A program made the translations under genes and the position numbers. Shown in pieces: positions 4,440 to 14,676 of a DNA stretch of 64,000 nt. Origin of the DNA: Candidatus Heimdallarchaeota archaeon. GTDB lineage: Archaea > Asgardarchaeota > Heimdallarchaeia > Heimdallarchaeales > Heimdallarchaeaceae. Within the stretch, counting starts at the first letter, position 1; each line of letters begins with the position of its first letter. A model generated the notes under the pieces. The model searched no databases and was not told the DNA's origin. It saw nothing but the letters and a program-made list of their open reading frames with translations. Location: assembly GCA_016839945.1 (NCBI GenBank), contig JAEOTE010000025.1:1-64000 (forward strand), given 5' to 3'.

Positions 4440-5150
4440 ATGGATAAGAAATTAGAAAAAAAATGGAAGAAATTTACTAAGTCTACAGATAAAAGTAAAC
4501 TTGACATTTTAGTGGAGCTTTCAGAGTTAGATAGAAGCGAGGAAATTGCTGAGTTTTTCTTTAGAGTAATTGAACAAGAAAAATATGAAAAAATCAGGAT
4601 CAAAGCAATCATGATTCTCAAAGAATATGATGATGAAAAGATAGTTGATAAGCTTAATAGCTTCTATGGACATGAAAGAGAGAAGAGCGTAAGATTAGCT
4701 CTAGTTGAAGCGATAGGTAATATGTCCTCTTCCAAAGTAGAAGATTTATTACAAACAGTAATAGAAAAAGATGATAATAATATTGTCCGCTCAATGGCGA
4801 TAAAAAACCTCCATAACAGAAAAAAGATTACCAAAGCTAAGATGAGAAATATACTTCATGATGTTATCCAGAATGATCATGATGTGTTTCCAAAACAAAT
4901 AGCATTAAGCGTGATTGAATTCTATGCAAATAAATCATCGCTTGAAATTCTGCAAAAAGTGTTTAATAGAGAAGTAAAATTCAAAATGAGAAGTCTAATT
5001 TACAAGACATTGAGCTCAATTGCAACAAAACTGAAGAAGGAATTAGATGTAGAAGAACCTAAAGAAGAATCTTTTGAAAAAACAGATAAAAAGGAAAAGA
5101 AAAGAAGGAAGAAAAAGAAAAAGGAAGAAGAAGAGCATCTATTTTTCTAA
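4440..5150 (+). CDS. HEAT-repeat protein with basic C-terminal tail
   Basis: Repeated E/D..VR.A.V.A.G helical units. Confidence 0.8.
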   Translation: MDKKLEKKWKKFTKSTDKSKLDILVELSELDRSEEIAEFFFRVIEQEKYEKIRIKAIMILKEYDDEKIVDKLNSFYGHEREKSVRLALVEAIGNMSSSKVEDLLQTVIEKDDNNIVRSMAIKNLHNRKKITKAKMRNILHDVIQNDHDVFPKQIALSVIEFYANKSSLEILQKVFNREVKFKMRSLIYKTLSSIATKLKKELDVEEPKEESFEKTDKKEKKRRKKKKKEEEEHLFF

Positions 5151-5321
5151 GAAATTAAGTTATTTCTCTCTTGAGAAAAATTCACTCTTAGAAATTTCTT
5201 TTGAAATTGTATTTTTAGTCATCTTATTACATAAAACGGATTATTTTCATAATTTGTTTAAGCGAAAATAATTATAGGTAGTAAAGAAACTGATACATAG
5301 AAAGAAATTTCGTTGATTTAA

Positions 5322-6239
5322 ATGGTTCAAAGTGTGAATATCTCTGAAAATGACCTAGAGCAAGTAAATCAATTTCTAATTGGTTTAGAAACTATTGTTA
5401 ATGAGGGAAGACAATGGGAGATGGAATCAATCATAGAAGGAGAGGGATTGGAGGGTGTTATTCAAGCCTTTCTGAGTATGATAATAGCAAACTTTGATCA
5501 GTCTTTATCAAAATTCAGAGTTTATCCAAGATTCATAAAGAAATTAGAAAATGGAAAAATAAGAATTCATAGTTCAACGAGAATATCATCAACTGAAAGT
5601 ATGGACATAACTTGGACTTTAAAAAAACCTCGTGGAGAATTTCAAAAATTAGTTATTGAAAGTATAAACTCAATGACTGTTGCAATATATGAAGAATCTA
5701 AACATGAAAGAAATGAAATTCCCAGATTAGATAAACAGTGGAAAGGATTCATGAGAGCAATCGAAAAAGTTGATATGATAAATAGGATCTATATGAAATT
5801 AAAAGAAGAGCAAGGAAAAACAAAAGCAAAAGCATTTTTTGATGATACAAAAGAGTTTGAACAAGAAGTAGATAATCTGTTTGGATTTCTAGAAGGGCCT
5901 TTCAAATTTATTGCATATATAGCTGTCATGGGTTCGAATGTTGATGGATTGAAAGGAGTAATTTTGAAGAAGAATGCGGATTATGAAGTAGTTTTTGATG
6001 ATTTTCGAGAACTTGATGCTTTGGATTCAATAACTGCAACCAAAAAAATGACAGAAAAAGAATATGTTGATTTGCTTACTTATCAATGGAAACAAAGAAC
6101 AAAGAAAAGCAAACTATTAGTAGAGATAATAGTTGATAAAGAAAAAAAGAGAATCACGTATAAATTAAAGAAAAAACCTCCTACTACAAAAAAAGGTAAA
6201 AAATTAGTCAAAGGTGAAAGAACTACTAAGAAAAAATAA
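5322..6239 (+). CDS. hypothetical protein
   Basis: 305-aa ORF, Lys-rich C-terminus, no recognised motif. Confidence 0.7.
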   Translation: MVQSVNISENDLEQVNQFLIGLETIVNEGRQWEMESIIEGEGLEGVIQAFLSMIIANFDQSLSKFRVYPRFIKKLENGKIRIHSSTRISSTESMDITWTLKKPRGEFQKLVIESINSMTVAIYEESKHERNEIPRLDKQWKGFMRAIEKVDMINRIYMKLKEEQGKTKAKAFFDDTKEFEQEVDNLFGFLEGPFKFIAYIAVMGSNVDGLKGVILKKNADYEVVFDDFRELDALDSITATKKMTEKEYVDLLTYQWKQRTKKSKLLVEIIVDKEKKRITYKLKKKPPTTKKGKKLVKGERTTKKK

Positions 6240-6251
6240 AATTGTCTATTA

Positions 6252-6908
6252 CTACTCTTCAGGTTTCTGTGCAACTACCCATACATATCCTCGTTTATCG
6301 CCAGGTCTCATTAATCTCTCTTCTCTTGCAAGGGAAAAAATAGTCCAGTTTTTTAGAGCTTTACGTAATTCTAACATTGTGATGAATCTTAATGGGGGAT
6401 CAGTCTTGAAATGAGGTTTAACATTTCCTCCATAAAGCAACCATCCTCCTGGTTTAACAGCTTTGATGAGTTCCTCAAATTTAGATGGAGTTTTCTCGAG
6501 AAGATATTGGAGACATTGAATAGCTGAAACAACATCATAACTTTCTTTCTTTAACACGAACTTCTCCATATCTTCAAGAAGTATATTCATTTTATCATCT
6601 AATCCTAATGTTTCTGCTCTTTTTTTTGTTATTTCAATTGAAGAAGGCAGTATGTCTATTGCAGTGACATCATATCCTAATTTAGCAAGAAAGCAAGAGT
6701 CTATCCCATCTCCAGTTGCTAGATCAATGGCTTTCTTTCCTTGAACATCTTGACCATATGTGAAAAAGTAAAATTCTTGTAAAGCGTAATGAGTAAGAAA
6801 GGTTGGTAACTCATTCAATGGTTGATCTAGTTGCTTCTTGTATAAATTATCCCAACCTTGCATATACTTGTCTGGCAAAACAGTAGGATACTTTTTGTTC
6901 ATAGACAT
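6252..6908 (-). CDS. class I SAM-dependent methyltransferase (TehB-like)
   Basis: IDLATGDG motif I, VTAID, YDVV, VKPGG. Confidence 0.85.
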   Translation of the reverse strand: MSMNKKYPTVLPDKYMQGWDNLYKKQLDQPLNELPTFLTHYALQEFYFFTYGQDVQGKKAIDLATGDGIDSCFLAKLGYDVTAIDILPSSIEITKKRAETLGLDDKMNILLEDMEKFVLKKESYDVVSAIQCLQYLLEKTPSKFEELIKAVKPGGWLLYGGNVKPHFKTDPPLRFITMLELRKALKNWTIFSLAREERLMRPGDKRGYVWVVAQKPEE

Positions 6909-7053
6909 TTTTGAAATAATGCACTTATAAGGTATCTTGTTTCCACAAAGGTTGAACTAATTTGGTTACGTATAAATAAGTGGCGTAAGATTTAATATAC
7001 TGTAAAAGCTTATTAGGGAAAGAGTTTAGATTTATGTTAAGGGGAGAAAATAA

Positions 7054-8721
7054 TTGAAAGGTAAAAGAACAGTTTTGATAAATTCTATTATTTTTATTTT
7101 TCTAATTTTGCATACAGGATTTGCAGTTGCAAAAAAAACAGATCAAACTAATACTGTGGATAAGGATGATTACTACTATGATTTTGAAGTACCCTATATA
7201 ATAACAAATGTTACAATTCTGGAAGATGGCTCAATAGATATTTTGTATGAAATGGAGTTAATATGTCAACCAGGAGGGCAACCCATAGATGTGGTAGATA
7301 TAGGATTTCCAAACAATCATTATAAACTGAAATCAGTAAGAGCATGGTTGGATGAGGTTGAAATTGATAAATCTAGGATAATGAAAAGTGAAGCTATTGA
7401 GATTGGAGTTGAAATATGGCTTTATGATGTGGGTTTTATTGATCCGGGAGAAACTGCAAAATTGAAAGTTTTTTGCAATAATCTAGCTATGGTGTACCCT
7501 GATGTCAATGAAGGCTTTGCATCTTGCTTGTTTTCACAAACTTGGTTTTATTGGGATTTTACATCAGGAACTACAAATAGAACTGTTAGATTCTTTTTCC
7601 CAGACGATTTACCTTCCTTAGATTCAGTGGAAAATAGATGGGCTCCAATATCTGAATTTACTAAATTTCCTTCTCCTTCTTATGGAGATCCTTACGTTGA
7701 ATTTTCAACATTTGGTTATCCTGATACACCATATGATGTAGGCGTTTCATTACCAGAGGAATATGTGAAAATACATAGTGTTTTCTGGAAACTTACAATT
7801 CCACAATACAAAGGTTTTATTTATTTTGGTTTAGCTGTATTAGCATTTGTTATACTCATGTCATTTAGTAAACGTCGATCAGATCGTAAGTATTTACCTC
7901 CAACAATCACTACTTTAGGAGGAGGTATTAGAAAAGATTTGATACCTTCAGAAGTAGCAATTTTTATGGAACGACCTTTAACTCAAGTAGCTTCTTTGGT
8001 CTTATTTGAGATGATGGAGAAAGAATATATCTCAATTAGACAAAGTTCTCCCTTAAGATTAGATGTAAACATAAACCAAACAAAGATAGAAGCTCTTCCC
8101 AAATATCAAGAATTAATAATAAATGGAATAAAAAAGAGAAATCAAGAAGATGAAAGAGTGCTAAGAGGAGCAAAATCTGGGGCTATCGAGCCTGAACCAG
8201 TTCATCAAACTGAATTGAAAAAAGCTCTTCAATCACTTATTAAGTCTGTAGGAAGAAAAATTAAGGGCTATTCTTTTAGAAAAACAAGAAAGTACTATGA
8301 AGAAATAGTTGATAAAGCTTGGATGGATATGCAAAAATCTAAACCTGAATTGCAAAACGCATTCCTATGGATAATGGTTGATGAAGATTATGAGGGTAGA
8401 TTAGATCGTCATTATACAAGTTATTACTATCCACATTGGTACGTTACCAATTACTACTTCTATACTGGAAGATCCTTTAGAACAATGCCAAAGGTTAGTA
8501 GATCGTCATTCGTAAAAATCCAAGGACATGGAAAAATTACTCAAATTTCTCCAGTTAGAAGTTTAATGGGTGGATTAATACATAAACCTCAAAGTATGCA
8601 TAAATCGATAAGAGGGGTTACTAGACCTGCTTCTACTAGTAGTGGAAGTAGAGGTTATAGCGGTGGGGGTTGTGCTTGCGCTTGTGCATGCGCCTGCGCA
8701 TGTGCTGGAGGTGGTAGATGA
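7054..8721 (+). CDS. single-pass membrane protein (DUF2207-like) with C-terminal Cys-Ala repeat tail; putative radical SAM substrate
   Basis: N-terminal signal peptide, beta-rich ectodomain (TILEDGSIDI), TM helix at about aa 255-272, cytoplasmic domain, Ser/Gly linker, ends GGGCACACACACACAGGGR. Confidence 0.8.
   Translation: MKGKRTVLINSIIFIFLILHTGFAVAKKTDQTNTVDKDDYYYDFEVPYIITNVTILEDGSIDILYEMELICQPGGQPIDVVDIGFPNNHYKLKSVRAWLDEVEIDKSRIMKSEAIEIGVEIWLYDVGFIDPGETAKLKVFCNNLAMVYPDVNEGFASCLFSQTWFYWDFTSGTTNRTVRFFFPDDLPSLDSVENRWAPISEFTKFPSPSYGDPYVEFSTFGYPDTPYDVGVSLPEEYVKIHSVFWKLTIPQYKGFIYFGLAVLAFVILMSFSKRRSDRKYLPPTITTLGGGIRKDLIPSEVAIFMERPLTQVASLVLFEMMEKEYISIRQSSPLRLDVNINQTKIEALPKYQELIINGIKKRNQEDERVLRGAKSGAIEPEPVHQTELKKALQSLIKSVGRKIKGYSFRKTRKYYEEIVDKAWMDMQKSKPELQNAFLWIMVDEDYEGRLDRHYTSYYYPHWYVTNYYFYTGRSFRTMPKVSRSSFVKIQGHGKITQISPVRSLMGGLIHKPQSMHKSIRGVTRPASTSSGSRGYSGGGCACACACACACAGGGR
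8671..8706 (+). repeat. coding (Cys-Ala)x6 repeat
   Basis: tgt gct tgc gct tgt gca tgc gcc tgc gca tgt gct; third codon positions vary. Confidence 0.95.
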
Positions 8722-10025
8722 TGGTGTCATCAAAAATGCATCATAGCAGAAATCTAGATACATTTGCAAGATTGCATCTACGAAAAGAAAAGAAAGGAAA
8801 TGGAATTTTATTAGTAAATGCAACAAGGATTTTTCACTTGAATAAAACTGCAACAGATTTCTTCTCTCGAATAATCGATAACAAAGATGATGAAGAAATA
8901 ATAAGAGAGATGAAAAGAAAATATAGAGTTGCAGAAGAACAACTTCGAATCGATTTAAAGGAACTTAAGCAATCTGTTGAAAACCTAATGAATAAACCAG
9001 ATATTGATCCAGTTCAAGATTTATCCCAAGATATTAGTCCTATGCTTGAAACTCCTTTTTCAGCACCACTTCGAATGGATTTAGCATTAACATATAAATG
9101 CAATAATAAATGTACTAAATGTTACGTTGAACAAACAAGAGATATTAAAGAATTGACTACAGAAGAGTGGAAAAATGTTTTAGATAAACTCTGGGAAATA
9201 GGAATCCCTCATGTAACTTTTACTGGAGGAGAACCAACTTTAAGAGATGATTTACCTAAACTTGTAGAGCATGCTGAAGATTTAGGTATAATTACAGGAT
9301 TAATTTCTAATGGTAGAAAATTAAAAGACAAGAAACTGGTTGAAGAGCTAGTTACAGCTGGAATTGATCACTTTCAGATTACAATTGAAAGCCATGACTC
9401 AAAAATTCATGATGAATTAAATGGTGCAAAAAATGCTTGGAAAGAAACAGTGGAAGGAATAAAGAATATTATTCCAACTCCCGTTTACATTATGACAAAT
9501 ACAACTCTTACTCCTTATAACATAAAAGATATAGAAAAAACTATAGAGTTCCTTGCTTCATTAGGAATTGACCATTTTGCAGCAAATGGAATTATCAAAT
9601 CAGGTGGAGGAAAGCAAGAAGAATTAGCTCTTTCTATTGATGAACTTGATGGAGTTCTAGATAGAGTAATGAAAAAAGCATCTGAATTAAAAATGGGTTT
9701 CTTGTGGTATTCTCCAACAAGATATTGTGATTTTAATCCAATAGATAAAGGATTAGGATTGAAACAATGTTCTGCTTCTCATATAGCAATGGCTATTGAA
9801 CCTGATGGAATGGTCATTCCGTGTCAGAGTTACTTTGAACCTCTAGGAAATATTTTAGAGACTAAATGGAGAAAAATATGGAACCATAAGACATCAAAAT
9901 CTCTCAGAAAAATGCAATATCTACCAGATGAATGCTTAGATTGTCCAGAAAGAGAAATATGTGGAGGAGGTTGTCCTCTAAACTATAAAGCTCCAATGAA
10001 TATATGTCGAGAAGCGTTTTCATGA
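8718..10025 (+). CDS. radical SAM/SPASM peptide-maturase-type enzyme with N-terminal PqqD/RRE domain
   Basis: RRE-like LNKTA..F....D..EII..M..KY.V.EE....D; CNNKCTKC; FTGGEP; SPASM C(x)nPDG.V.PC and CLDCPEREICGGGCP; ATGA overlap with upstream stop. Confidence 0.92.
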   Translation: MMVSSKMHHSRNLDTFARLHLRKEKKGNGILLVNATRIFHLNKTATDFFSRIIDNKDDEEIIREMKRKYRVAEEQLRIDLKELKQSVENLMNKPDIDPVQDLSQDISPMLETPFSAPLRMDLALTYKCNNKCTKCYVEQTRDIKELTTEEWKNVLDKLWEIGIPHVTFTGGEPTLRDDLPKLVEHAEDLGIITGLISNGRKLKDKKLVEELVTAGIDHFQITIESHDSKIHDELNGAKNAWKETVEGIKNIIPTPVYIMTNTTLTPYNIKDIEKTIEFLASLGIDHFAANGIIKSGGGKQEELALSIDELDGVLDRVMKKASELKMGFLWYSPTRYCDFNPIDKGLGLKQCSASHIAMAIEPDGMVIPCQSYFEPLGNILETKWRKIWNHKTSKSLRKMQYLPDECLDCPEREICGGGCPLNYKAPMNICREAFS

Positions 10026-10026
10026 T

Positions 10027-10794
10027 GTGCAAAATATGAGAATAAAATCAAAAGACATAGATTGGGGGGCAGATGTGGAACAGCAATTCATTCGTCAAGC
10101 TAGTTGGACTCGAGCATATAGAAACCAAATTTATAGACAAATTGGTATGATAAAAGCAAGAAATTTACTTGAAGTTGGTTGTGGAACAGGAGTTATTACT
10201 AAAGAACTTCAAGAAAAAACTTCAGCTAAAATAACTGCAATTGATTTTGATAAATCGATGATAGATATTGCAAAAGATTATGTGAGTGATGTTCGATTTC
10301 TTACTGAGAATGTGGAAGAACTATCTTTCAAAGATAAATCATTTGATTTTGTAGTTTGTCATTATTTTCTATTATGGATTTCAAACCCAGAAAAAGCTCT
10401 AAGCGAAATTGCTAGAGTCTGCAAACGAGATGCTACAATTGTTGCTCTTTCAGAACCTGATTATGGGGCATGGATTGAATATCCTGAAATGGGATTAGGA
10501 AAATATCACATTGAGTATTTGCAAAAAGAAGGAGCTGATCCTTTTATTGGAAGAAAAATATTATCACTTTTCGAATCAGCAGGATTGGAAACTGAATTAT
10601 CAGTAGTTGCACAAACGTGGAACCAAAATCTTCTAAAAGAAAATATAGGTGAAGAGTGGAAAAGAGTATTAGAAGCAGAATTAATAACTAAGAAAGAGTT
10701 TGATGAAATAATTAAGAAAGAAAATAAACTCATAAAGAAAAATCAAAGGATGATTTTCATTCCAGTTTTTACTGCAATAGGAAGGAAAAAATAA
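10027..10794 (+). CDS. class I SAM-dependent methyltransferase
   Basis: LEVGCGTG, TAID, SFDFV; GTG begins 1 nt after the rSAM stop (alternative ATG at 10036). Confidence 0.88.
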   Translation: MQNMRIKSKDIDWGADVEQQFIRQASWTRAYRNQIYRQIGMIKARNLLEVGCGTGVITKELQEKTSAKITAIDFDKSMIDIAKDYVSDVRFLTENVEELSFKDKSFDFVVCHYFLLWISNPEKALSEIARVCKRDATIVALSEPDYGAWIEYPEMGLGKYHIEYLQKEGADPFIGRKILSLFESAGLETELSVVAQTWNQNLLKENIGEEWKRVLEAELITKKEFDEIIKKENKLIKKNQRMIFIPVFTAIGRKK

Positions 10795-10797
10795 GCA

Positions 10798-10957
10798 TGG
10801 TCGGGCCTCCGTGATTTTCAGATTTTTCCAGCTAGAGCGCGTCTAACTGCTTTTGAACACGGGACCGCTCGGTCTCTACCGGCTGACACCTTGATCATTG
10901 TTCACAAGGGCGTCAAAGACTACAGCCGAGTGCTCTAAGCCACTGAGCTAAGGCCCG
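10798..10957 (-). tRNA. tRNA-Tyr(GTA) with two introns (37/38 and 59/60), CCA encoded
   Basis: Acceptor CGGGCCT/AGGCCCG, A73, CCA; anticodon arm CTCGG-CT-GTA-G..A-CCGAG; T arm CCGTG/CACGG; introns 10874-10919 and 10815-10851 with BHB motifs. Confidence 0.93.
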
Positions 10958-11114
10958 ATTATTTTGATGCATTTTTGCATCTAATTTTTGTCGTGGTACT
11001 CTGTTCTTAAATTTTTCTTTTCATTCTTTCCTTTATTTTCAGAACTGCTTTACATATTTCACCCTTATTTGAGTAAACTTAAAAATAAGTTTTGATTAAA
11101 TTATTTGGATTATA

Positions 11115-11567
11115 ATGAGTGAATCACAAGTACAATATTTCAAACTATTGGAAAAGAAATATTCAATAGAAGAAGACATTTACAAAAAGCTTGGAGACAT
11201 GCAGGATCTTAAGAAAAAAATAGCTGATCAGAATAAGAAAAGAGCAAAGGATGAACGAGAGAGAGAAGAAAGTTTAATCAGTAAAGCTGAGTATGAAGTT
11301 GAAGGATTGATTGACAAAGCATTAAAAAGCGAGGTTAAAGCAAAAAAGAAAGAAGCTTCAATTGCAGAAAAAGATTATAAGATTAGAGAACTTGAGCGTC
11401 GTATAGTCAAAGTTGAAGATGAACTTAGTAAGCTTGAAAGTGAATTACAAGAAGCTGAAAACGATATCAATGCTCATAAAACAGGGGAACCTGCATATAA
11501 AGAACCTGTATATCAAGAAGATCAACCTCCTCTAGAACCAACAGTTTTCGAAGATATTGACGAATAG
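11115..11567 (+). CDS. coiled-coil hypothetical protein
   Basis: E/K-rich heptad pattern, acidic Pro-containing tail. Confidence 0.7.
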   Translation: MSESQVQYFKLLEKKYSIEEDIYKKLGDMQDLKKKIADQNKKRAKDEREREESLISKAEYEVEGLIDKALKSEVKAKKKEASIAEKDYKIRELERRIVKVEDELSKLESELQEAENDINAHKTGEPAYKEPVYQEDQPPLEPTVFEDIDE

Positions 11568-11680
11568 CCTATCTTCACAATCCATTTTTTTATTTCTTAT
11601 TATAGCATATATTCTAGAATATTTTGAAAAACACCAACTTTTTTAAATCACTTTTTCATTTTTAAATTCGGTGTAAAATC

Positions 11681-12064
11681 ATGGAAATGTATGGAAGTGC
11701 CGATTGGAAAACAGAGAAACATGTTCCTGTAATTGAAGTAGCAGATGTTATCAAGAAAGGTGAAAAAACACCTATCACAGTAAGTGTTGGAAAGGAAATT
11801 GCTCATCCAAATAAAACTGAACATTATATATCTTGGATTAAACTCCTATTTTGGCCAGAGGGTGAGAAATATCCTATTGAACTTGGTGTCGTCAATTTCA
11901 CTGCTCATGGAGAATCAGTAAGAGGTCCAGATACAAGTACAGTTTATACTGAACCACATGCTGTATTTCATCTAAAGACAGAAAAACCAGGTAAACTTAT
12001 CGCAACAAGCTACTGCAATATTCACGGTTTATGGAAAAATAAAAAAGAAATCAAGGTAGAATAA
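11681..12064 (+). CDS. sor: superoxide reductase (neelaredoxin / class II SORL)
   Basis: EKHVP, HP...EHYI.WI, YCNIHGLW iron-binding motifs. Confidence 0.93.
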   Translation: MEMYGSADWKTEKHVPVIEVADVIKKGEKTPITVSVGKEIAHPNKTEHYISWIKLLFWPEGEKYPIELGVVNFTAHGESVRGPDTSTVYTEPHAVFHLKTEKPGKLIATSYCNIHGLWKNKKEIKVE

Positions 12065-12130
12065 AATTAACTTTTTTCTTTTTTCTTTATTTTATTGAAA
12101 ATTCTTCTACAAAATGTTTTTTTAAAATAG

Positions 12131-12694
12131 ATGCTTTTTATAGTTATGAGTAATTTCGAAGAAAAAGAAACAATACCAAGACCTGGTTCAGTTGAATATA
12201 AATTCCTATTCGGTACAGAAGAAGAGAAAAAGCGTATTCTTAAAAATTGGAAACGGATGAATAAGCTCTTTACTATCCCTTTTTACAAAATTGGAATAAT
12301 ACCACTAACTCCACTTAAAAAAGTGTTCCTTCTGCTTTACACTAAAGGAAGAAAGACTGGAAAACAAAGAATAACACCGCTTGAGTATAGAAGGAAAGAT
12401 GGGATAATTCATGTTGTTGCTGGAAGAGGTAGCAAAGCTCATTGGTTTAAGAATCTTATTGCTAACCCAGATAATGTAAAAATCAAAATAGGTTTTAGGA
12501 AATTTGATGCTGAATACAAAACTCTGGAAAACATTTCTGACAAAGTAGAGCTTCTACAATGGTACGTTAAAAAATTCCCTCGAGACGCTAAATTTCTTTT
12601 TGGGTGGAACCCAAAATTGGATGATCCAGAAAAAACTGACCTTACTCATTTTGCAAGTCTTATAGAGATAATCCAATTTCACCCAAAAACGTGA
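12131..12694 (+). CDS. deazaflavin (F420)-dependent nitroreductase family protein
   Basis: LLL.T.GRKTGK.R.TPL and W.KNL.ANP.V motifs of the Ddn family. Confidence 0.85.
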   Translation: MLFIVMSNFEEKETIPRPGSVEYKFLFGTEEEKKRILKNWKRMNKLFTIPFYKIGIIPLTPLKKVFLLLYTKGRKTGKQRITPLEYRRKDGIIHVVAGRGSKAHWFKNLIANPDNVKIKIGFRKFDAEYKTLENISDKVELLQWYVKKFPRDAKFLFGWNPKLDDPEKTDLTHFASLIEIIQFHPKT

Positions 12695-12756
12695 TTTTTT
12701 CTTAAATTGATAATAAAGAAAACTTATATCTCTTAAGTATATGATATAAAATTAAC

Positions 12757-14676
12757 TTGAACACATCATCTACATCATATAAAGGTTATAGAGGACAATC
12801 ACTAGTAATAAATCTTAGTGAGAATACAGTAAAGAAGATTTCTTCTGACAAAGATATGATTGAGAAGTATTTGGGAGGAAGAGGTTGGGCAATCAAATAC
12901 CTTTTTGACAATTTGAAACAAGGTATAGATCCATTAGAACAAGAAAATATTCTAGTAATAAGCTTAGGACCTTTAACTGGAACATTGGCACCATCAACTG
13001 CTAGATATACAATAGCGTCTAAATCTCCTCTAACTGGAGGAATAGGGTATGCAAATGCTGGAGGGCATTTTGCTCCAGAATTAGCATATGCAGGATATGA
13101 TGCTATTTTTATCCATGGAAAATCAAAGAATCCTGTATATCTATTCATAGAGGATGATCGTGTTGTATTGAAAGATGCAAAGCATCTATGGGGAAAAGAT
13201 ACATGGGAAACTGATGAATTAATTAAAAAAGAATTAGAGAATGAAAATTTTCAGATCTTAAGTATTGGACAGGGAGGTGAGAATCTAGTACGATATTCTG
13301 CTATAATGAACAATCTTTCACGAGCTGCAGCGAGAACTGGAGTAGGAGCAGTAATGGGCTCAAAGAATCTAAAAGCAATTGCTGTTAGGGGAACAGGAAG
13401 TGTTGAAGTAGCAGAACCTGAAAAATTCAACAAACTAATTGATGTAACACTTGAAAAGATATATGATGATCCTGCATATCCAAGTTTATCATTTTATGGG
13501 ACACCCTTCCTAGTTGACTTATCATTCATTAGTGGAGGTCTTGCTACTAACAATAATCAAAGAGGGAATTTTGATAAGTATGAAGAAATCTCTGCAGAAA
13601 CATTCGAAGAAAATTATAAGGTGAAATCAGAAAGCTGCTTCGCTTGCCCAATTCATTGTGGAAAATATTCAAAGATTGAAACAGGAAAATATGCTGGAAC
13701 TAAAGGAGGGAGTCCAGAATATGAAACAATTGTATGTTTAGGTTCCAAATGTGGAATAGGTAATTTAGAAGCTATATTACATGCAAACGAGCTATGTAAT
13801 AGATTCGGACTTGATACTATCTCATTGGGAGACACAGTAGCCTTTGCAATGGAAGCATATGAGAAAGGTGCGTTATCATCAGCTGACACTGATGGCATTG
13901 AATTAAGCTGGGGAAATGAAGATGCTCTAATCAAACTAATTAAGAAAATAGCATTCAGAGATGGCTTTGGCGATTTATTAGCTGAGGGTGTTAAAAGGGT
14001 TTCAGAAAAGATTGGAAAGGGTTCAGAGAAATATGCTCTCCACATTAAAGGGATGGAACCTCCTGCATATGATGTTAGAACTGCAAAAGCATTTGGTTTA
14101 GGTTGGGCCACCGCAACAAGAGGTGCTGACCACCTCGCAGCTTTACCCAATTTCGAATTACTCGGGTATGAGCCAGAAAAAGGTCAGAGCTGGTTTGGCT
14201 CTGAAAAAACTGTGGATCCATTTGCTTGGGAAGGAAAATCCCGCATGGTAGTTTGGCATGAAAATTTAGGAGCTATTGTAGATTCTGCTGAAATGTGCAA
14301 GTATACTTGCTTTTCTGCATATGCCGTCAAAGAAGATGATATGGCCCAATTCATACAATATGCGACTGGAAAGAAAATAACTGGTGAGGATATACTTGAA
14401 ATTGGAGAACGAATTTTTAATTTGGAGAGGCTTTTTAATCTAAGAGAAGGAATTGGTGCGGAAGAAGATAGGTTGCCTGATCGTTTTACAAAGGAACCAT
14501 TTACTGAAGGACCAGCAAAAGGACAAATAGTTGAACTAGATAAAATGCTACCTGAGTACTATGCAATCCGCAATTGGGATTATAAAACTGGTTTCCCAAA
14601 AGAAGAAAACTTAACGATACTTGGGCTCTTAGATTCAGCTCTGAAATACGATTTAGTTTCTAAAAAGGAGGGATAA
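12757..14676 (+). CDS. aor: tungsten-containing aldehyde:ferredoxin oxidoreductase
   Basis: YLGGRG, KSPLTG, G.GAVMGSKNLKAI, CFACPIHC, PEYET, GLDTIS. Confidence 0.95.
   Translation: MNTSSTSYKGYRGQSLVINLSENTVKKISSDKDMIEKYLGGRGWAIKYLFDNLKQGIDPLEQENILVISLGPLTGTLAPSTARYTIASKSPLTGGIGYANAGGHFAPELAYAGYDAIFIHGKSKNPVYLFIEDDRVVLKDAKHLWGKDTWETDELIKKELENENFQILSIGQGGENLVRYSAIMNNLSRAAARTGVGAVMGSKNLKAIAVRGTGSVEVAEPEKFNKLIDVTLEKIYDDPAYPSLSFYGTPFLVDLSFISGGLATNNNQRGNFDKYEEISAETFEENYKVKSESCFACPIHCGKYSKIETGKYAGTKGGSPEYETIVCLGSKCGIGNLEAILHANELCNRFGLDTISLGDTVAFAMEAYEKGALSSADTDGIELSWGNEDALIKLIKKIAFRDGFGDLLAEGVKRVSEKIGKGSEKYALHIKGMEPPAYDVRTAKAFGLGWATATRGADHLAALPNFELLGYEPEKGQSWFGSEKTVDPFAWEGKSRMVVWHENLGAIVDSAEMCKYTCFSAYAVKEDDMAQFIQYATGKKITGEDILEIGERIFNLERLFNLREGIGAEEDRLPDRFTKEPFTEGPAKGQIVELDKMLPEYYAIRNWDYKTGFPKEENLTILGLLDSALKYDLVSKKEG

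Follow-up and report, generated by a model that had tools for sequence, protein, structure and literature searches.

The 64,000-nt stretch of the Candidatus Heimdallarchaeota contig JAEOTE010000025.1 that we analyzed, referred to here as the window, carries three coupled open reading frames (ORFs), all on the forward strand within 7054–10794, which encode a membrane protein with a Cys-Ala repeat tail (M), a radical S-adenosylmethionine (SAM)/SPASM enzyme (R) and a methyltransferase (T). Judged from the genomic evidence, and with a probability of roughly 60%, M-R-T would be an operon for the post-translational maturation of M's own tail. This reading draws on gene structure, domain content, conservation, synteny and co-occurrence, from which we infer R's action on the tail, the bond type, what T methylates and the role in the cell. 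The initial annotation of this DNA had proposed the cytoplasmic tail of the 555-residue membrane protein as the substrate, and comparative genomics supports that proposal through tail conservation, synteny and co-occurrence.

The ORF list places M at 7054–8721 (555 residues, TTG start, stop codon included), R at 8718–10025 (435 residues, with RRE(PqqD), radical SAM and SPASM domains) and T at 10027–10794 (255 residues, GTG start, a class I SAM-dependent methyltransferase), with Pfam matches for R and T and orthologue conservation for R. The first codon of R, ATG at 8718–8720, uses bases of M's final sense codon and of its TGA stop in an ATGA overlap at 8718–8721, where the DNA reads ...GGT GGT AGA TGA TGG..., and a single base lies between the end of R (10025) and the GTG of T (10027). 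The three genes are translationally coupled, and the tight linkage, overlap and 1-nt gap are exactly where the initial annotation had put them. It had also reported no short precursor ORF nearby, and our scan of 5000–13000 agrees: the intergenic DNA holds no short Cys-rich precursor ORF, and the few candidates are all fragments that overlap genes in other frames. In the window itself, the cassette consists of M-R-T only.

The presumed substrate is the tail GGG-(Cys-Ala)6-GGGR at 8662–8718 (residues 537–555), and the C-terminus of M as a whole reads ...SRGYSGGG-CACACACACACA-GGGR. Since the (CA)6 repeat (8671–8706) is written in mixed TGT and TGC and mixed GCT, GCA and GCC codons, it is not a clean DNA microsatellite. 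Across an alignment of 121 homologues, columns C544–R555 are 97–100% conserved, with Ala as strict as Cys, against a mean column identity of ∼19% across M, and the tail is the most conserved stretch of the protein. A word-based search recovered Heimdall homologues together with a single bacterial one (30% identity) that carries the same tail, while an exhaustive HMMER profile search extended the family to 849 cluster representatives at E ≤ 0.001. Among the 146 best representatives, 122 end exactly in (CA)n, often with one Gly interrupting, followed by GGGR; 7 carry near variants (GGGA, GGGGGR, VSCACACAGGGAR and similar), and the remainder look truncated. Since the species-scan loci described below were partly chosen by the pattern CACACAGG, the frequency of the tail should be taken from the HMMER search and not from those loci. 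In the AlphaFold2 model of M, the end of the protein (530–555) is disordered, as expected of a substrate rather than a structural element.

The tail can be read differently, as a metal-thiolate or iron-sulfur element for sensing or storage, in which case R and T would load or assemble the cofactor, or serve another substrate, and the tail would stay covalently unchanged. Alternating cysteines on one face of a strand resemble the Cys-x-Cys motifs found in metallothioneins, flexible glycines lie on both sides of the tail, and a small PAS-like protein is present in some bacterial cassettes. A metal site, however, would not need Ala to be as invariant as Cys, and the number of cysteines varies from about 5 to 8, which is easier to reconcile with an enzyme acting repetitively than with a fixed metal site. 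Further against this reading, R has a domain for recognising peptides, which of R and its paralogues is present follows the kind of tail, and a pseudo-enzyme paralogue is once found fused to M (P0111, described below). On balance, we consider a purely metal-binding tail quite unlikely.

To see how widely the tail and the enzyme travel together, we turn to the genomic distribution of the cassette. In the species-genome scan, a relative of M occurs in 303 genomes, mostly of Anaerolineae and other Chloroflexota, with further carriers in Zixibacteria, Acidobacteriota, Cloacimonadota, Fermentibacteria, Edwardsbacteria, a deltaproteobacterium, Heimdallarchaeota and Hodarchaeota. One locus, L084, comes from a metagenome-assembled genome labelled Anaerolinea thermophila. 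Rather than being an Asgard speciality, the system belongs mostly to bacteria (Chloroflexota), such that the earlier description of an unusual system in an Asgard-like archaeon holds for its presence in Heimdall- and Hodarchaeia and gives way to a chiefly Chloroflexota distribution. Synteny was counted over 79 fetched loci with a tailed M, restricted for each feature to loci with enough flanking sequence. Among the 68 loci with at least 1.5 kb downstream, which span several bacterial and archaeal phyla, 60 have a cluster-bearing R immediately downstream of M, 4 have only a Cys-less R paralogue next to it, 1 has R elsewhere in the locus, and 3 have no R. A T orthologue is present in 44 of the 54 loci with at least 5 kb downstream.

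The same dependence is seen in a sample of 201 Asgard genomes, where we defined a close R by at least 42% identity. M occurs in 41 of these genomes, all 41 of which have a close R, and none of the 151 genomes lacking a close R carries M (0/151). In three GTDB families, M and R are adjacent and present in the same genomes: 19 of 21 in f1, 6 of 10 in f5 and 4 of 40 in f13. A close R with no detected M was found in 9 genomes, all of family f16 and 72–89% complete. Taken with the 60 of 68 loci above, this strict co-occurrence bears out the expectation of the initial annotation that Cys-Ala-tailed homologues keep their radical SAM neighbour. The patchy Asgard spread and the bacterial majority suggest horizontal transfer of the system.

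The domain content of R is that of a peptide maturase. A PqqD/RRE-like peptide-recognition domain occupies 8769–9017 (residues ∼18–100; Pfam PqqD at 32–83, 29.5 bits against a cut-off of 23.4) and is followed by the CxxxCxxC radical SAM cluster motif at 9099–9122 (C128, C132 and C135; Pfam Radical_SAM, 97 bits) and by a SPASM domain at 9726–10007 (residues ∼337–430; Pfam SPASM at 351–410, 40.2 bits against a cut-off of 21.5). In 35 orthologues, the three cluster cysteines, the SPASM cysteines C337, C351, C369, C406, C409, C415 and C419, and R18, H20, L21 and R22 of the RRE region are all invariant, and a bacterial R orthologue also matches PqqD. The Pfam matches and invariant cysteines agree with the N-terminal PqqD/RRE-like domain, CxxxCxxC and full SPASM motif that had been noticed in gene 2 from the sequence. 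R therefore combines the RRE, CxxxCxxC and seven-Cys SPASM that together define RRE-dependent radical SAM/SPASM peptide maturases, and it has an adjacent, co-inherited substrate gene, though the candidate substrate is a protein tail and not a short peptide. Co-folding of R with M residues 476–555 returned a score of 0.02, which has no bearing for or against binding.

The best solved relatives of R are SkfB (6efn, E 1.1e-25), PqqE and SuiB, all RRE-bearing peptide maturases. Against the named NCBIfam radical SAM families (PqqE, NirJ/NirJ1/NirJ2, AhbC, AhbD, SkfB, AlbA, MftC, ScmE and others), R falls far below every listed curated cut-off, with 143.7 bits for PqqE (cut-off 381), 139.3 for NirJ2 (500), 115.1 for AhbD (500) and 108.3 for SkfB (300); it therefore belongs to no named family. 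TIGR04463, the family of CrpC, is outside the best 25 of the 76 NCBIfam families matching R, hence below about 68 bits. The possibility that R is a cofactor enzyme of the NirJ, AhbC or AhbD kind is ruled out by domain architecture, NCBIfam cut-offs and gene context. The initial annotation had named a grouping with such enzymes as an outcome that would undo its proposal; instead, R is far under the NirJ, AhbC/D and PqqE cut-offs, bears an N-terminal PqqD/RRE domain, has SkfB, PqqE and SuiB as its nearest solved relatives, and has a paralogue clade that adjoins another Cys-repeat tail.

Since R is below every curated family cut-off, its chemistry is not fixed by family, and it could modify the tail in ways other than thioether formation: epimerisation of Ala or Cys (as by YydG/EpeE), conversion of Cys to formylglycine or dehydroalanine (as by anaerobic sulfatase-maturating enzymes, anSMEs), or carbon–carbon linking. 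Radical SAM/SPASM enzymes do all of these, the invariant Ala positions would suit epimerisation equally well, and the sister cassette described below has an alanine-racemase-fold, D-serine-dehydratase-like gene. In contrast, the anSME motif C/S-x-P/A-x-R is absent from the tail, the nearest solved relative of R by sequence is the thioether-forming SkfB, and we know of no epimerase or anSME with an N-terminal RRE of the type found in R. We therefore hold such alternative chemistry to be unlikely.

The third gene matches Methyltransf_11 (85.4 bits), Methyltransf_25 (75.4 bits) and UbiE-type families and has the Rossmann-type SAM-binding fold, and these profiles confirm its earlier assignment as a class I methyltransferase. 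No NCBIfam equivalog cut-off is reached by T.

Two further observations connect the R family to M. In 33 Asgard genomes (family f10 and one of f9), we found an R paralogue of only 32–38% identity and no CA-tailed M, and we examined the gene neighbourhoods of this sister system at three loci (L094, L095 and L096). In two of them (L095:7947–10115, forward strand; L096:3194–5371, reverse strand), the R paralogue, of 32–36% identity in this sister family, is adjoined by a 722–725-residue signal-peptide protein that ends ...ACHSACHSACHS...CVSGG[F/G]R, i.e. in a tail of the (CHSA)n-GG[F/G]R type. Both of them further encode a zinc-ribbon membrane protein like Z (described below), an alanine-racemase-fold/D-serine-dehydratase-like protein and a metallophosphoesterase; at L094, the zinc-ribbon and dehydratase-like genes are present, and no tailed protein or phosphoesterase within the fetched stretch. 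The (CHSA)n protein shares the cytoplasmic domain of M (hhalign probability 99.8%, E 1.5e-28, M positions 287–451), and its database relatives are labelled Thorarchaeota and mostly end before the tail. Between the CA and CHSA systems, the repeat type and the R clade change together while the cytoplasmic domain stays constant, as would be expected if the tail is offered to the enzyme by that domain. By sequence, the (CHSA)n protein appears to represent a system of this kind with a second ‘tail alphabet’.

The other observation is P0111, a 948-residue metagenomic representative in which an RRE and a degenerate, Cys-less radical SAM barrel homologous to R (E 4e-19) are followed by a membrane segment and then by a complete tailed M. 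The fusion was seen once only and might be an artefact of gene calling. Its arrangement agrees with loci L037 and L087, where an R2-type gene (a pseudo-radical-SAM paralogue, see below) directly precedes M. Read from their sequences, the P0111 fusion and the (CHSA)n sister pairing provide independent links between the R family and M.

M itself has the parts that the initial annotation had read from its sequence, a signal peptide, ectodomain, single transmembrane helix, cytoplasmic domain, Ser/Gly linker and Cys-Ala terminus, all of which are present in the sequence and in the structural model (AlphaFold2 on 121 homologues, mean pLDDT (predicted local distance difference test score) 87). The signal peptide or signal anchor spans 7054–7131 (residues 1–26; hydrophobic helix 2–21 in the model), and the extracytoplasmic β-sandwich domain, of Ost1/ribophorin-I-like fold by VIA-align and Foldseek, spans 7171–7788 (residues ∼40–245), its β-rich part being residues 48–234 in the model. 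The transmembrane helix at 7810–7884 (residues 253–277) is one long helix in the model, and the basic stretch KRRSDRK that follows indicates that the C-terminal part of M is on the cytoplasmic side. There, the conserved cytoplasmic domain (7885–8640, residues 278–529; conservation profile, domain model pLDDT 85, predicted template modelling score 0.83) contains a folded α/β domain at residues 298–523 and the motifs YLPP...GxG..R.L...KKG...YE...KMKGFS..T..YY...AW...W, and is probably the docking module for R. The Ser/Gly-rich linker (8641–8661, residues 530–536) has pLDDT below 50.

This architecture bears on whether M could be a giant precursor whose tail, once modified, is cut off and set free as a small peptide of the ribosomally made, post-translationally modified kind (RiPP). 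Secreted RiPPs are the usual products of RRE-radical-SAM enzymes, the Gly-rich linker could serve as a cleavage site, and a YgjP-like metallopeptidase gene lies downstream in one bacterial locus. However, the 530 residues ahead of the tail amount to far more than a leader peptide, being a membrane anchor and two folded domains that are well conserved, and the tail is on the cytoplasmic side. Moreover, neither a protease nor an exporter is conserved in the cassette among about 80 loci, which makes release of the tail as a RiPP, one of the fates offered in the initial annotation, very improbable.

The fold of the ectodomain points to a known layout. With VIA-align, it matches 6c26_1 from the yeast oligosaccharyltransferase (Z 14.4, root-mean-square deviation (r.m.s.d.) 3.1 Å, 179 aligned residues) and 6s7o_E from the human oligosaccharyltransferase (Z 13.4), chains that we take to be Ost1 and ribophorin I; across both chains the r.m.s.d. 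is 3.1–3.3 Å over ∼180 residues, the matched region is the membrane-proximal luminal domain, and Foldseek E values against these chains reach 9e-9. M1-aminopeptidase N-domains rank next (Z ∼11), and the Ost1-like fold is therefore not exclusive. DUF2207 clusters are among the nearest ESM Atlas neighbours of M. DUF2207 proteins, Ost1 and ribophorin I thus resemble M in the β-sandwich fold of the ectodomain and in the layout of ectodomain, one transmembrane helix and cytoplasmic domain, and differ in that a Pfam match is wanting in M and that the fold is common to M1-aminopeptidase N-domains as well. Specifically, the DUF2207 profiles (PF09972/PF20990) match neither M nor a bacterial homologue at E ≤ 0.01, the likeness being seen only by language-model and fold searches, and the Ribophorin_I profile does not match M at E ≤ 0.01, where the ectodomain fold alone agrees. 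No AglB gene was found among the genes beside M (window 5322–12694) or among the gene clusters conserved across related loci.

Searches with the rest of M returned little. M has no family match in Pfam or NCBIfam, and a bacterial homologue has none in Pfam at E ≤ 0.01. For the cytoplasmic domain folded alone, Foldseek found no solved relative in the PDB at E ≤ 0.001, and VIA-align returned only GOLPH3 (Z 5.9) and Vps74 (Z 5.1), both under the trustworthy level; the M-family profile gave nothing meaningful against PDB sequences. Pfam scans of long M homologues revealed no informative extra domains, the extra length being due to a duplicated ectodomain or, in the case of P0111, to the pseudo-radical-SAM domain. 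Four bacterial homologues of 766–774 residues (P0018, P0042, P0048 and P0057) have two tandem ectodomain copies before the membrane helix.

Put together, we propose that M inserts in the membrane such that the ribophorin/DUF2207-like domain would lie outside, and the folded domain and the flexible, Gly-flanked (Cys-Ala)6-GGGR tail in the cytoplasm. R would dock on M via its N-terminal RRE, and its radical SAM cluster and two SPASM clusters would abstract hydrogen atoms along the repeat, most likely joining Cys sulfurs to carbons of neighbouring Ala. The product would be a ladder of small rings held by sactionine- or ranthionine-type thioethers, which T might then methylate on a thiol left over or on the C-terminal carboxylate. 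The tail would stay on M, making the product a modified membrane protein and not a released peptide. By analogy, the chemistry is probably thioether cross-linking plus methylation. We favour thioethers because the nearest relatives of R make them, the substrate is Cys-rich, Cys and Ala are both invariant, and CrpC of Methanococcus voltae cross-links the large protein CrpA by thioethers (ranthionine), also at CA-containing motifs such as ACAGM and CAVD (PMC13692751, 2026).

Several points weigh against maturation of the tail in this manner. The bond type is guessed by analogy with relatives, rings across one to three positions are tight, Ala is an uncommon acceptor, and alternating Cys is also the classic metal-thiolate pattern. 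Adjacency of M and R is not obligatory, in that the 3 of 68 loci without R have none within 3–7 kb. In addition, in family f16 the R-T pair is on contigs other than those of M, and Z-M(-M2) is at contig ends. Still, since M and R co-occur in f16 though unlinked, the association is functional and not merely positional.

Assembly may contribute to this separation. Contigs and predicted proteins often stop at or just past tail-protein genes (L091 and L093 from genomes G096 and G060; P0161–P0167), and in f16 a second M-like gene stands in tandem behind the first. Repeats or tandem paralogues seem to break assemblies, which may hide linkage to R.

Beyond R and T, the cassette often contains additional genes. 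Z, a protein of ∼130 residues with two membrane helices and a CxxC...CPxC zinc ribbon, lies immediately upstream of M in 58 of the 70 loci with at least 600 bp upstream, and the pseudo-radical-SAM paralogue R2, another R-like gene that has a PqqD domain, lacks CxxxCxxC and encodes 0–3 cysteines, is present in 34 of the 54 loci with at least 5 kb downstream. Some bacterial cassettes add the small PAS-like protein and an unassigned 337-residue protein. In the related Heimdall locus L001, Z is directly before M, while in the genome of the window a Z homologue (E 5.8e-27) is on another contig (C73), unlinked to M. At that locus (L089; 1501–1878, 1972–2913), Z is found between a luciferase-like oxidoreductase and a 313-residue membrane protein with a C-terminus that looks like a RING-H2-type zinc finger.

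The genes flanking the cassette in the window are of mixed kinds. Just upstream of M, a second class I methyltransferase gene (6252–6908, reverse strand; TehB/UbiG-like, 218 residues) is divergently oriented, and locus L001 likewise has two methyltransferase genes near the cassette. Downstream, 11115–14676 encodes a coiled-coil protein, a desulfoferrodoxin-type superoxide reductase, an F420H2-quinone-reductase-like protein and an aldehyde:ferredoxin-oxidoreductase-like ORF, most of which are syntenic in the related Heimdall contig L007 (6973–9939) and not in other phyla. For a candidate two-intron tRNA-Tyr at 10798–10957, neither ARAGORN (10600–11200) nor Rfam (10700–11150, E ≤ 1) reported a tRNA, which may only reflect the limits of these tools with multiple or non-canonical introns.

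On a broader scale, we tentatively suggest, at somewhat less than even odds, that the tail, the R-type enzyme, the pseudo-enzyme and the zinc-ribbon protein represent a widespread, hitherto undescribed class of protein-tethered RiPP-like maturation with at least two tail alphabets, which builds a covalently cross-linked or redox- or metal-active cytoplasmic appendage on ribophorin/DUF2207-like membrane proteins. If true, tethered maturation would equip anaerobic bacteria and Asgard archaea with a cofactor or signalling element of a new kind, anchored in the membrane. Radical SAM RiPP machinery is usually tied to small secreted peptides and here appears devoted to the end of a full-size membrane protein, with the tail sequence kept nearly letter for letter from Chloroflexota to Asgard archaea. 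Confirmation would establish a new post-translational modification and a new enzyme subfamily, and would offer the first functional handle on the large DUF2207/ribophorin-like membrane-protein family. Testing the system is simple, since the presumed substrate amounts to one tryptic peptide at the C-terminus.

How new is the system? M, Z and R are not covered by any model in Pfam or NCBIfam, and we found no description of the tail motif or of M-R-T in the searchable literature, including that on DUF2207 or on radical SAM enzymes and RiPPs in Asgard archaea. Among known systems, the His-Xaa-Ser repeat system (HxsA with HxsB/HxsC; TIGR03977) is similar in that a short repeat is the presumed target of paired radical SAM proteins, defined by comparative genomics only, and HxsC models match R partially, below cut-off; it differs in its H-x-S repeat and small precursor. 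The sactipeptide and ranthipeptide maturases SkfB, AlbA, CteB and PapB share with R the order of RRE, radical SAM and SPASM/twitch domains and have Cys-rich substrates encoded next door, and the AlbA and KxxxW-maturase NCBIfam models align over almost the full length of R. Their substrates, in contrast, are short leader–core peptides that are cleaved and exported, whereas in M-R-T the substrate would be the end of a 555-residue membrane protein with no conserved protease or transporter. In QhpD/QhpC, a radical SAM/SPASM enzyme makes several Cys thioethers in a polypeptide that is retained in a functional protein; unlike in M-R-T, QhpC, with its cross-links to Asp/Glu, is a small enzyme subunit in the periplasm, and the system has no repeat tail, membrane protein or methyltransferase.

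CrpC/CrpA (TIGR04463) likewise pairs an RRE-radical SAM-SPASM enzyme with a neighbouring large protein that has repeated Cys motifs at its C-terminus (PMC13692751). CrpA is soluble, with at least 10% Cys and 17-residue repeats (PMC13692751), whereas M is a membrane protein with about 1% Cys, a dipeptide repeat and an invariant GGGR end. The initial claim of a new system thus stands in that no family model or literature we found covers M-R-T, and is tempered by the CrpC/CrpA precedent for cross-linking a large Cys-rich protein, a finding of whole-protein cross-linking that M-R-T, if confirmed, would extend (PMC13692751). The M-R-T cassette differs further in adding a methyltransferase and, in bacterial cassettes, the zinc-ribbon membrane protein and the pseudo-radical-SAM paralogue. 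The kind of system is known, an RRE-radical-SAM/SPASM enzyme maturing a neighbouring Cys-rich polypeptide, with CrpC/CrpA and QhpD/QhpC as its protein-substrate precedents.

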